From the NCBI RefSeq assembly GCF_009931435.1, contig NZ_CP043414.1: a stretch of 64,000 nucleotides of DNA. One strand, given 5' to 3'. Positions within the stretch are counted from its first letter, which is position 1. Each line of letters begins with the position of its first letter. A program made the translations under genes and the position numbers. Positions 4,684 to 59,048 of this stretch are shown here, piece after piece. A model generated the notes under the pieces. That model was not told the DNA's origin, did not search any database, and saw only the letters and a program-made list of their open reading frames with translations. The DNA is from Escherichia coli. GTDB lineage: Bacteria; Pseudomonadota; Gammaproteobacteria; Enterobacterales; Enterobacteriaceae.

Positions 4684-5538
4684 TTACACCAACGCCCCGT
4701 AAATCGTCAGTAGCGCAATTACCACCACGACCACGAACGAGGTTTTCTTCGCCATGGAAACCGCTGCCTTCGGCGTCTCCACCTTATCGACATGCGGTTC
4801 ACGCGCCAGAGAGAACTGTGCCAGACGTGTTAATACCTGATATTGCGAAGTATGGAAATCACCCAGCGAAGCAAACCAGGCCGGTAACGCTTTTTCCCCA
4901 TGACCGATCAAGGCATATACCACACCCGCAAGACGAACCGGCACCCAATCCAGTACATGAAGCACGGCATCAATGCCGGACTGTAAACGATGATGCGGCG
5001 TCTGGTAACGCGCCAGCCAGTATTGCCATGCACGCAAAAACGCATACCCCATCAGCGTAACGGGTCCCCAGGTTCCCCCCACAATCAGCCAGAACAACGG
5101 AGCAAGATAAAAACGAAAGTTAATCCACAGCAATGCATTTTGCAGCTCACGCAAATACTCACGTTCATCGCAGCCTGCTGGGACGCCGTGAATCATGGTG
5201 AGTTCGCCAGCCATCGTGGCACGGGCATGGCTATCATTACGTGAAGCAGCTGTCAGATAAGCATGATAATGAAGACGAACTTTACCTGCGCCAATACACA
5301 GCAAACCAATCAGCAGCCACACCAGCAGCGTGGGAACGTTGAACAATACTCCCTGCAATGCGCGTAACAGTAAAAAAGTCACGCCCATCGCAATAATGGT
5401 CATGCCTAATGTGCGCCCGAGAGAAAAATGTTTCACCCGCCGGAAGAACGCCTCAAGACGATGATCAAGCTGCCAGTGCTCGCCCAGCTTAAACAGGCGC
5501 TCGAAAATTAACACCAATAGGGTTGTAAACAGCGTCAT
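4684..5538 (-). CDS. ampE: AmpE inner membrane protein, 284 aa
   Basis: Track ORF 4684..5577 trimmed to [22 protein letters not shown]... (known AmpE N-terminus); start overlaps ampD stop by 4 nt. Confidence 0.93.
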
Positions 5539-6086
5539 GTTGTCTCCTTGCTGACCAGGGCGCGAAACCGTGCCCAATCAAAGGCGGGGCCGGGATCGGT
5601 TTTCCGATCCGGCGCAATATCACAATGGCCCGTCATGTTATTAGCGATATCTGGATAGCGATCAATCAGTGCCCGCGTAACCGCCGCAAGCTGTTGATAC
5701 TGCGCATCGGTATACGCCAGCGTATCGGTGCCTTCCAGCTCAATCCCAATAGAAAAATCATTGCAGCGTTCGCGCCCCTGATACTGAGAGACTCCGGCAT
5801 GCCAGGCACGTTTATCGAAAGGAACATACTGGACTATTTCACCATCGCGGCGAATCAAACAGTGAGCGGAGACGCGCAAATGGGCGATCTCAGCAAAGAA
5901 AGGATGTGCCTGCGGATCAATAGTTCCAGTGAATAATGCGTCGATCCACGGACCGCCAAACTCGCCTGGCGGCAGGCTAATATTGTGCACCACCAGCAGG
6001 GTGGGTGTTTCGTCATCCGGGCGGCAATCGTAATGTGGTGAGGGAACGCGGCGCGCGCCAACCAGCCACCCCTGTTCTAACAACAT
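5535..6086 (-). CDS. ampD: 1,6-anhydro-N-acetylmuramyl-L-alanine amidase, 183 aa
   Basis: Track ORF; [45 protein letters not shown]... matches AmpD. Confidence 0.95.
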
Positions 6087-56709: not shown

Positions 56710-56712
56710 GTA

Positions 56713-56810
56713 GCCGCATCAGGTATGTAACGCCTGATGCGACGCTGACGCGTCTTATCTGGCCTACACGTTCCGATTTTGTAGGCCGGATAAGCAAAGC
56801 GCATCCGGCA
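56713..56810. repeat. REP-like palindromic units in araA-araD spacer
   Basis: GCCGCATCAGGTATGTAACGCCTGATGCGACGC...TGTAGGCCGGATAAGCAAAGCGCATCCGGCA read in sequence; REP family by consensus. Confidence 0.75.
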
Positions 56811-56813
56811 TTC

Positions 56814-56856
56814 TTTTCCCCCTCGCCCCTTTGGGGAGAGGGCCGGGGTGAGGGGA
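56814..56856. repeat. GC-rich imperfect palindrome (boxC-like) immediately upstream of araD SD
   Basis: TTTTCCCCCTCGCCCCTTTGGGGAGAGGGCCGGGGTGAGGGG; CCCCTCGCCCC pairs with GGGGTGAGGGG. Family assignment (boxC-like) is from memory and uncertain. Confidence 0.45.
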
Positions 56857-57573: not shown

Positions 57574-57578
57574 TTTAA

Positions 57579-57612
57579 GAGAAGCATCTGGGTAACAGGT
57601 GCTTCTTTTTTA
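57579..57612 (+). terminator. Intrinsic terminator after araD
   Basis: AGAAGCATCTG-ggtaac-AGGTGCTTCT (one mismatch in stem) followed by TTTTTTATTAT, 6 nt after the araD stop. Confidence 0.65.
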
Positions 57613-57619
57613 TTATCAC

Positions 57620-58063
57620 TCAGGCAGCAAGAAAAATTTCTGCCCCTATTCCCTCAATTAACAGTGCTTCTAATGAAGGGGCAATATACACCGCATCATC
57701 AAGATCTAAATTACCAAAACCGACGAGATATAAACCAAACCCCTCTTTTCCTTCGGCATAAAAAATCACTTTTCCGCCTTCATCATCGCCAATCGCCAGA
57801 GCGTGTGGAATATAATCCTGAATATGGTATGCGGCATTCATCTCACTACAGCCTGCGGCTCCCCAAATTCTGATATAAGACGTTGAATCCATCACTTTTA
57901 ATTCAACGTCTGCCATCAGAGTAATAAAGGTTAAATACTCATCAGGAATTGCAATGTGAAAATAATTTTTTATAAGTTGACCGAGTCCACTATAATCTAA
58001 TACGGGTTCCCATGACGCCAGCGTGAATTTTTCATGCAATTTAACAATAGGAAACTTACTCAT
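57620..58063 (-). CDS. Hypothetical protein, 147 aa, SUKH/SMI1-KNR4-like (putative immunity protein)
   Basis: Track ORF; ATG start overlaps upstream ORF stop (ATGA). Segments IPDEYLTFITL, ALAIGDDEGGKVIFY, GLYLVGFGNLDLDDAVYIAPSLEALL resemble the SMI1/KNR4 (SUKH-1) pattern. Assignment by eye only. Confidence 0.6.
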   Translation of the reverse strand: MSKFPIVKLHEKFTLASWEPVLDYSGLGQLIKNYFHIAIPDEYLTFITLMADVELKVMDSTSYIRIWGAAGCSEMNAAYHIQDYIPHALAIGDDEGGKVIFYAEGKEGFGLYLVGFGNLDLDDAVYIAPSLEALLIEGIGAEIFLAA

Positions 58064-58407
58064 TTCATCATCCTTTTCTTATACTTCTGGGGTAAAATAT
58101 CCGTTATAACGCCTTCACCTATAAATCCGGCTTCCCACAGCAGAAACTCACTGCCACAGCTGATCCACGGCATTACAAGTTCAGGATTTAAAAACGCCAT
58201 CTCAAGATTGTGTACCATTTCGCCAGGGTGAATCGTTTTTCCATAGCCGTCGATGTAAATCCGGCAGCCATAACCATATGAAGATAACTCATTAATCCCT
58301 TTAAAAAAGACAGGACAGCCGTAAAAACGGTTAGATGATAACAAAGGGCCACGATGCGATTTTTGCGTTGAAGAGTATAGTGTAATGGTAATCCGAACCT
58401 TTCTCAT
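58060..58407 (-). CDS. Hypothetical protein, 115 aa, no recognisable family
   Basis: Track ORF; ATG preceded by GGAGGG SD (minus strand TTCGGAGGGAAGATG); translationally coupled to the downstream SUKH-like ORF (4-nt overlap). Confidence 0.6.
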   Translation of the reverse strand: MRKVRITITLYSSTQKSHRGPLLSSNRFYGCPVFFKGINELSSYGYGCRIYIDGYGKTIHPGEMVHNLEMAFLNPELVMPWISCGSEFLLWEAGFIGEGVITDILPQKYKKRMMK

Positions 58408-58419
58408 CTTCCCTCCGAA

Positions 58420-58752
58420 TTAATTACGCTCTTCAATCAAATATGTCGTTTTATTAGTCCAGGCGATTATTTTATAGGGTCTGTTAATAATACCTTTCTG
58501 CGTATAATCAGCCATAATTTCTGATGGATACCAACCATAACCAAAGCAAAATAAAGCACCTACATTAATAAGCTCACTAATTACACTTAGTTTCTCATTT
58601 TCATTACTGGTATTTTTGCTAAATCGATCATTGTCGGCAGAAAAACCCAACCGTTGCATTTTTTCAACGTTATCATATCCGGTCACTACCGTTTCAATGA
58701 AATTATCACTTATGCTAACCACTATAATACAATCGCTCGGCAGTGTGTTCAT
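58420..58752 (-). CDS. Hypothetical protein, 110 aa, no recognisable family
   Basis: Track ORF; ATG start; 12-nt gap to next ORF; AT-rich upstream region 58753-58975 likely holds the promoter. Confidence 0.55.
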   Translation of the reverse strand: MNTLPSDCIIVVSISDNFIETVVTGYDNVEKMQRLGFSADNDRFSKNTSNENEKLSVISELINVGALFCFGYGWYPSEIMADYTQKGIINRPYKIIAWTNKTTYLIEERN

Positions 58753-58975
58753 TTCCCCTTGATCCTTCTAAAGTCATTTTTTCACCACAACAATGAATTC
58801 AATAGATATAATGAATATATGCAGCCATTTATATATAATTAGCATTACACCCTAATGCCTTAATATAACCCAAACAGAAATCGTCCGATAATCAGAAAAT
58901 GTAATCATTGAATAAAGCAGGAACCTTTTTATCGCATGAGAAACCGAAGATGGTTGATGCCGTTTCGTCAAACAT

Positions 58976-58995
58976 TACTGTACAAAATATCAGTG
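58976..58995. promoter_or_regulatory. LexA-box-like sequence upstream of polB (one mismatch to CTGT-N8-ACAG)
   Basis: TACTGTACAAAATATCAGTG: CTGT-N8-TCAG. polB is a known SOS gene; the K-12 box as I recall (CTGTATAAAACCACAG) is a perfect match, this one is not. Confidence 0.45.
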
Positions 58996-59001
58996 TTCAG
59001 T

Positions 59002-59034
59002 AAAAAACCAGGCTATAATCAAGCCTGGTTTTTT
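59002..59034. terminator. A-run/hairpin/T-run element just upstream of polB (hairpin loop contains TATAAT)
   Basis: AAAAAACCAGGCTATAATCAAGCCTGGTTTTTT; perfect 7-bp stem CCAGGCT/AGCCTGG. Could terminate transcription from either side and/or supply the polB -10. Confidence 0.55.
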
Positions 59035-59048
59035 GATGGATTTTCAGC

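Follow-up and report, generated by a model that had tools for sequence, protein, structure and literature searches.

A short gene for a SUKH-like protein, of a type known from polymorphic toxin systems, closes a row of three small genes between araD and polB in an Escherichia coli genome. The question it raises is which toxin such a protein would counter, and from where that toxin would come. We analysed the 64-kb stretch of DNA around it (here called the window). In our judgement the three genes probably form a toxin-less, heterogeneous polyimmunity islet, and the last of them would encode an orphan SUKH immunity protein of a Tox-SHH-linked subfamily that blocks an incoming Tox-SHH DNase.

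Layout and boundaries of the araD–polB islet

The SUKH-like gene (orf3) lies on the minus strand at 57620..58063, with its ATG at 58063 and its TGA ending at 57620, and encodes 147 amino acids; on the plus strand, the frame across the same span is riddled with stops. A sequence-only reading of this DNA had placed such a gene at the end of an islet operon, and orf3 is indeed the last of three co-oriented, tightly packed ORFs. The first gene of the operon, orf1 (58420..58752, minus strand, 110 aa), is followed after a gap of 12 nt by orf2 (58060..58407, minus strand, 115 aa), the stop codon of which overlaps the orf3 start codon (ATGA). A Shine-Dalgarno-like motif can be read in the sequence 5′ of each ORF, and the three genes would be expressed as one operon. 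The three motifs quoted in the earlier reading are all present in the 147-aa product: IPDEYLTFI (residues 39–47), IGDDEGGKVIFY (residues 91–102) and LDDAVYIAPSLEALL (residues 121–135).

The islet occupies ~1.4 kb between the end of araD (57573) and the start of polB (59049), and its GC content is 0.32–0.45 compared with 0.55–0.60 in these flanking genes. In E. coli H9Ecoli, the araD–polB spacer is 74 nt long and closes with a hairpin terminator. The same conserved hairpin (aaaaaaccaggct...agcctggtttttt) is found in the window at 59001..59035 on the plus strand, where it delimits the insertion on the polB side, and most E. coli genomes align to the query only from this hairpin onward. From the araD stop codon to this hairpin, the window carries a foreign stretch of ~1.43 kb, and the three-gene islet would have been inserted at this point, ahead of the ancestral araD terminator.

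A terminator scan located a second hairpin at 57577..57609, between the convergent ends of araD and orf3, with a 14-bp stem and T-runs on both sides. Its sequence is absent from reference E. coli, and it is probably a bidirectional terminator that arrived with the islet. At the other end, composition, sequence and a promoter scan delimit an AT-rich non-coding leader 5′ of orf1 (58753..59000, minus strand, GC ~0.32). We presume that this leader is the promoter region of the islet operon; it holds no strong consensus promoter, and the promoter scan returned no convincing sigma-70 promoter 5′ of orf1. AT-rich islets are often silenced. A repeat scan of the islet revealed no flanking direct or inverted repeats suggestive of a mobile element, no mobility genes were found, and an Rfam scan detected no Rfam elements within it. 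Outside the islet, in the araA–araD spacer (~56710–56850 of the window), a minus-strand ORF translates to a REP/BIME-repeat-like peptide (...CRPDKTRQRRIRRY...) and is probably an ordinary REP element.

The SUKH protein and the toxins of its relatives

The sequence-only reading had taken the orf3 product for a SUKH (SMI1/KNR4) protein and had proposed profile, structure and neighbourhood comparisons as checks. Pfam PF09346, a profile match to the structure 3D5P, the predicted fold and the names given by NCBI all agree with that identity. The orf3 protein itself matched PF09346 at E = 7.3e-4 (20.6 bits, model positions 12–124 of 125), a match that is weak by itself; when each family member was scanned, 13 of 16 scored E ≤ 1e-3 and all 16 scored E ≤ 0.1, with a best value of 4.6e-10. 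These 16 homologues, toxin-linked members included, make up the family alignment (A1), which has 16 invariant columns, all of them shared by the window protein by construction. The A1 profile matched the sequence of 3D5P in the PDB at E = 1.7e-9 over residues 21–136. An AlphaFold2 model of orf3 built from the same alignment (pLDDT 90.9, pTM 0.86) returned 3D5P as the first Foldseek match in the PDB (E = 7.8e-7, TM 0.67/0.73), followed by 2ICG and the yeast Knr4 core (6QBO/6QBQ), with the SUKH-type T6SS immunity proteins Tdi1 and Tdi2 lower among the matches. The 3D5P entry, named 'putative glucan synthesis regulator of Smi1/Knr4 family', has been cited as the Imm-SUKH fold (Zhang et al. 2012, PMC3482391).

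Orthologues from Escherichia with 93% and 86% identity are named 'SMI1/KNR4 family protein' by NCBI/UniRef, and RefSeq labels all three islet genes of E. coli 2014C-3075 'hypothetical protein'. Scans of the three islet proteins against NCBIfam, PADLOC and PHROGs gave only a weak match of orf3 to a PHROG of unknown function (E = 0.009), and the phage collection contained no SUKH homologue. Profile and model evidence together support the assignment of orf3 as a SUKH-1 (SMI1/KNR4) fold protein.

The genomic neighbourhoods of its relatives supply the toxin partner for which the earlier reading had suggested looking: a Tox-SHH domain, encoded directly upstream. Relatives with 47–55% identity were found in Photorhabdus, Pluralibacter, Cronobacter, the Bacillus cereus group and metagenomes, and each is encoded directly 3′ of such a domain. 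In Photorhabdus australis, the homologue begins 8 nt past the gene for a 1642-aa PAAR-Rhs protein with a Tox-SHH (PF15652) tip, and in Pluralibacter gergoviae it follows an orphan Tox-SHH tip of 161–167 aa within a VgrG-DcrB-Rhs locus. In Cronobacter and two metagenome contigs, tblastn placed the end of the Tox-SHH domain immediately before the homologue; on one metagenome contig the domain terminates a protein that is at least 1064 aa long and overlaps the SUKH homologue by 4 nt. A B. cereus chromosome carries a frameshifted Tox-SHH remnant 5′ of the homologue, whereas on the B. thuringiensis plasmid pHD120161 the SUKH gene abuts that of a 448-aa 'pre-toxin TG domain-containing protein' with a Tox-SHH end. 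SUKH homologues were present on 43 Bacillus plasmids. The sole exception outside Escherichia was Affinibrenneria salicis, in which a second SMI1_KNR4 gene accompanies the homologue in an array of small genes that includes no toxin.

The Tox-SHH domain of the B. thuringiensis plasmid (cassette at locus L022, 3640–5414) is 74% identical to the Rhs-borne one of Pluralibacter (cassette at locus L005, 6621–7544), and the SUKH proteins of the two cassettes are more diverged, each being ~49–53% identical to the window protein. The comparison points to a recent cross-phylum exchange of the Tox-SHH/SUKH cassette between different secretion contexts.

Imm-SUKH is listed among the immunity proteins of Tox-SHH toxins, for which five different immunity families are given in all (Zhang et al. 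2012, PMC3482391). Two Tox-SHH effectors, Txe4 and V2c, are DNases by experiment and are neutralised by the product of the gene immediately downstream. Given the gene order in the relatives, the published list and the data on Txe4 and V2c, the orf3 subfamily is best read as an immunity partner of Tox-SHH nucleases. In the mechanism that we propose, orf3 would be a cytoplasmic SUKH-1 protein of a narrow subfamily encoded directly 3′ of Tox-SHH domains. Tox-SHH domains are HNH/His-Me-finger DNases carried at C-terminal tips; the tips belong to Rhs/T6SS effectors in Enterobacterales and, in the Bacillus cereus group, to pre-toxin-TG proteins. The SUKH protein would bind an incoming Tox-SHH nuclease domain 1:1 and block its DNase activity, and the outcome would be protection from neighbours armed with Tox-SHH toxins.

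No such toxin accompanies the window copy. Searches with two Tox-SHH domains (tblastn) returned only noise from both the islet and the whole 64-kb window, consistent with the earlier remark that no large toxin gene is present, and no other toxin tip was found in either. The same searches led us to reject orf1, orf2 or any other islet frame as a degraded Tox-SHH tip. A DNA search that detects roughly ≥65–70% nucleotide identity also gave no match for the Tox-SHH + SUKH module in 5426 complete E. coli genomes, both islet-bearing genomes among them; the aggressor, if any, would therefore not be an obvious E. coli strain. Since no Tox-SHH toxin lies within the window and the relatives are linked to one, the evidence supports the first of two options offered by the sequence-only reading, namely that the SUKH gene is an orphan member of an immunity subfamily, with no complete toxin-immunity pair at this site. 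Identity of 47–55% to the toxin-linked homologues, together with the usual specificity of immunity proteins, counts against assuming cross-protection.

The gene could also be displaced rather than orphan, its cognate Tox-SHH toxin lying in another part of the genome, as our view is limited to 64 kb and Rhs and T6SS loci do occur elsewhere on Escherichia chromosomes. We regard this as very improbable: toxin-immunity pairs are nearly always adjacent, as they are in all of the relatives examined, and the module search of E. coli genomes came up empty at the identities that it can detect.

Distribution, maintenance and companion genes

The islet was present in 2 of the 5426 complete E. coli genomes, both times at ~91–92% identity. 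Clusters of the islet proteins also contain members from E. fergusonii, E. albertii and Escherichia sp. MOD1, and in the cluster records the accessions of the three islet genes are often consecutive. The polB gene of the window is at best 97.9% identical to that of any complete E. coli genome, which places the source in a somewhat divergent Escherichia coli-like lineage.

Comparison of the window with E. coli 2014C-3075 gave dN/dS values of 0.19 for the SUKH gene (dS 0.198), 0.30 for orf1 (dS 0.276) and 0.73 for orf2, which is frameshifted there (dS 0.162), compared with 0.02 for both araD (dS 0.278) and polB (dS 0.205). Between the window and E. fergusonii, dN/dS for the SUKH gene was 0.35–0.37. 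The SUKH gene is thus under moderate purifying selection, and Escherichia orthologues at 82–93% identity together with these ratios (0.19 and 0.35) mark orf3 as more than a chance ORF. The synonymous divergence of the islet is similar to that of the araD and polB flanks. This pattern fits long residence at the araD–polB site with later loss from most E. coli, although the islet may instead have been co-transferred along with its flanks.

In E. coli 2014C-3075 (locus L001, 3530–3860), orf2 is frameshifted near its 5′ end, and RefSeq calls an 88-aa product; orf1 and the SUKH gene are intact in that strain, which indicates that the islet genes decay independently. In the E. fergusonii genome CP099328 (locus L006, 5278–7696), the SUKH gene shares the araD–polB spacer with a DUF218 gene and a gene for a 393-aa DUF6348 protein, and neither orf1 nor orf2 is there. 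The orf1-orf2-SUKH trio appears to be present in other E. fergusonii genomes, so that the araD–polB spacer looks like a small hotspot where the cargo varies.

These data also bear on whether orf3 has an immunity role at all. SUKH domains have non-immunity roles too, and the fold matches include the Knr4 core, so that orf3 might be a housekeeping or regulatory SMI1/KNR4-type protein, like yeast Knr4, or else a decaying remnant devoid of function. The lack of a toxin nearby would suit either version. So would the rarity of the islet, which 5424 of the 5426 complete E. coli genomes do without and which is hence dispensable, and the decay of orf2 to a pseudogene in one lineage. We nonetheless consider this unlikely. 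Apart from Affinibrenneria, every context that we examined for the closest relatives outside Escherichia links them to a toxin; dN/dS values of 0.19–0.37 argue for a maintained protein, and the SUKH gene has an unbroken frame in E. coli, E. fergusonii and E. albertii. An orphan immunity gene remains our preferred reading of orf3, and on that reading it would be co-transcribed with two further immunity-type genes that likewise lack a toxin, orf1 and the EF-Tu-domain-III-like orf2.

By itself, orf2 has no match in Pfam and no toxin-like match in NCBIfam or PADLOC. Its family is large, with 135 cluster representatives at E ≤ 1e-3 in an exhaustive phmmer search, nearly all of them stand-alone proteins of ~100 aa. 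The family profile (A2) matched EF-Tu domain 3 best among PDB sequences (E = 2e-5), the only others being two weak matches to a peptide receptor (E ~0.15), and a few family members match Pfam GTP_EFTU_D3. The structural model agrees: it has a pLDDT of 93.7 and superposes on EF-Tu domain 3 with an rmsd of about 2 Å, and the best 50 Foldseek matches listed from the PDB are EF-Tu chains or EF-Tu-containing complexes. In AFDB, many proteins of ~100 aa carry the automatic name 'EF-Tu C-terminal domain-containing protein'; the database also has an E. coli entry that matches orf2 at 100% identity.

At five independent loci, orf2 homologues stand in the immunity position behind Rhs toxins, and these toxins have one C-terminal domain in common. 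A Kosakonia homologue lies 8 nt behind a VgrG-DcrB-PAAR-Rhs toxin (locus L018, 6001–6318), others follow the Rhs toxin of an SpvB/TcdB-Rhs locus and that of a short Logan contig, a TARA contig has its homologue as the second gene after an Rhs protein of >2500 aa, and one homologue (P0144) is fused to an Rhs protein. Besides L018, the loci with orf2 relatives are L020 (6001–6489), L017 (6001–6321), L012 (477–788) and L011 (6001–6315).

The Rhs tips encoded 5′ of these homologues have in common a C-terminal domain of ~105 aa with the pattern LYRAVGP..EL..IR.TG.F...KYFTTS...FGD.PYT.IK...VDGGIPA.VLP (L018 ~5600–5993, L019 ~1270–1662, L020 ~5660–5992, L012 ~80–475 and L017 ~5100–5441). It has no match in Pfam, NCBIfam or PDB sequences and appears to be an un-annotated polymorphic-toxin domain; the 64-kb window contains no copy. 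We therefore predict, from the place of its homologues behind Rhs toxins with related tips, that orf2 is an immunity-type gene for a different toxin than orf3, specifically an orphan immunity protein for this un-annotated Rhs C-terminal toxin family. At locus L011 (5657–6315), two different EF-Tu-D3-like small genes stand in tandem with no toxin nearby, on an enterobacterial chromosome between yciB/ispA-like and 4HBT thioesterase genes, and make up another miniature orphan array, here of the orf2 superfamily.

Our literature search found no description of an EF-Tu-like immunity protein and none specific to the araD–polB islet, and we know of no report of an EF-Tu-D3-like immunity family. Mimicry of a toxin target or cofactor by the orf2 family is a speculative idea. 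If the Rhs tip acted on or through EF-Tu, the family could be a decoy of the target or cofactor, with an undescribed mechanism and toxin family, and the islet a three-antidote cassette maintained across Escherichia; we hold this fuller version to be doubtful.

The second option of the sequence-only reading, that the SUKH protein is the immunity partner of the small ORF upstream, fares less well in light of these results. Under it, orf2 and orf3 would be a self-contained toxin-immunity or toxin-antitoxin pair, with orf2 the toxin and the SUKH protein its neutraliser. In its favour, the ATGA overlap suggests translational coupling, and the three genes occur together in other Escherichia, to judge by the 2014C-3075 locus and the consecutive accessions. 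However, orf2 is predicted to be an EF-Tu-domain-III-like β-barrel, and Pfam, NCBIfam and PADLOC gave it no toxin-like match. Its homologues stand where immunity genes stand at the five Rhs loci, and the recurrent partner of the SUKH family is Tox-SHH. One E. fergusonii genome carries the SUKH gene in this spacer but lacks orf1 and orf2, which indicates that the SUKH gene does not depend on orf2. The orf2 frameshift in 2014C-3075 alongside an intact SUKH gene does not discriminate, as it would be tolerable also if orf2 were a toxin. On balance, a self-contained pair is a very remote prospect, and two orphan immunity genes for different toxins remain the better account.

Less can be said of orf1. 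It matched nothing in Pfam, NCBIfam, PADLOC or PDB sequences, and a word-indexed search returned only near-identical Escherichia homologues. The one distant homologue found (42% identity) is encoded on the Rahnella aceris plasmid pPlas2 (locus L021, 5027–6330). It belongs to an Rhs array with an Imm15 gene, and there it shares 4 nt with the 3′ end of an orphan Rhs-CT ORF, the stop codon included. The tip encoded by that Rhs-CT ORF is ~140 aa long and has no family assignment. A relationship of orf1 to SUKH proteins or to orf2 was considered and rejected, as hhalign showed no resemblance. On the strength of the single Rahnella context, we provisionally regard orf1 as a third orphan immunity gene. 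The three islet proteins are mutually unrelated. At least two immunity-family genes of different kinds thus stand in a row here and no toxin gene adjoins them, the arrangement that defines a polyimmunity locus; orf1 is the weakest leg of this assignment.

Relation to known immunity systems

The islet suggests that an Escherichia lineage, whether commensal or pathogenic, can hold antidotes to contact-dependent toxins that it does not itself make, and can do so in an otherwise invariant housekeeping spacer. It also offers a likely toxin specificity, Tox-SHH DNases, for proteins that databases label only 'SMI1/KNR4 family'. The EF-Tu-domain-III-like immunity family and the un-annotated Rhs tip may be a more useful lead than the SUKH gene.

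As a protein, orf3 resembles the Imm-SUKH proteins of polymorphic toxins, with their prototype 3D5P (BF1740 of Bacteroides fragilis), in fold, profile and size (~145 aa). With respect to the Imm-SUKH proteins paired with Tox-SHH (PF15652), its 47–55% identical homologues hold the canonical position 3′ of toxin tips. The window gene differs in that it has no adjacent toxin and lies in a housekeeping spacer rather than an Rhs or T6SS locus, and its immunity role is predicted. Txe4-Txi4 of Pseudomonas plecoglossicida and V2c-V3c of Agrobacterium tumefaciens 1D1609 involve the same toxin family as the partner of the orf3 relatives, again with the immunity gene directly downstream; here the likeness to orf3 lies in the toxin family, and the papers on the two pairs do not state if Txi4 or V3c belongs to the SUKH proteins.

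As a locus, the islet is most like the heterogeneous polyimmunity loci described by Zhang et al. (2012), being a tandem of co-oriented, unrelated, immunity-type genes without a toxin. Like them, it is AT-rich, patchy in distribution and presumably horizontally acquired, and the array in Affinibrenneria is similar. It differs in being very small, with three genes, and in lacking recombinase or mobile-element genes; it also keeps to one chromosomal site in several Escherichia species, and its synonymous divergence resembles that of its flanks. The acquired interbacterial defence clusters of Bacteroidales are comparable in concept. Set beside these systems, the araD–polB islet is a neatly documented but ordinary orphan-immunity cluster, an instance of a phenomenon that is already known.
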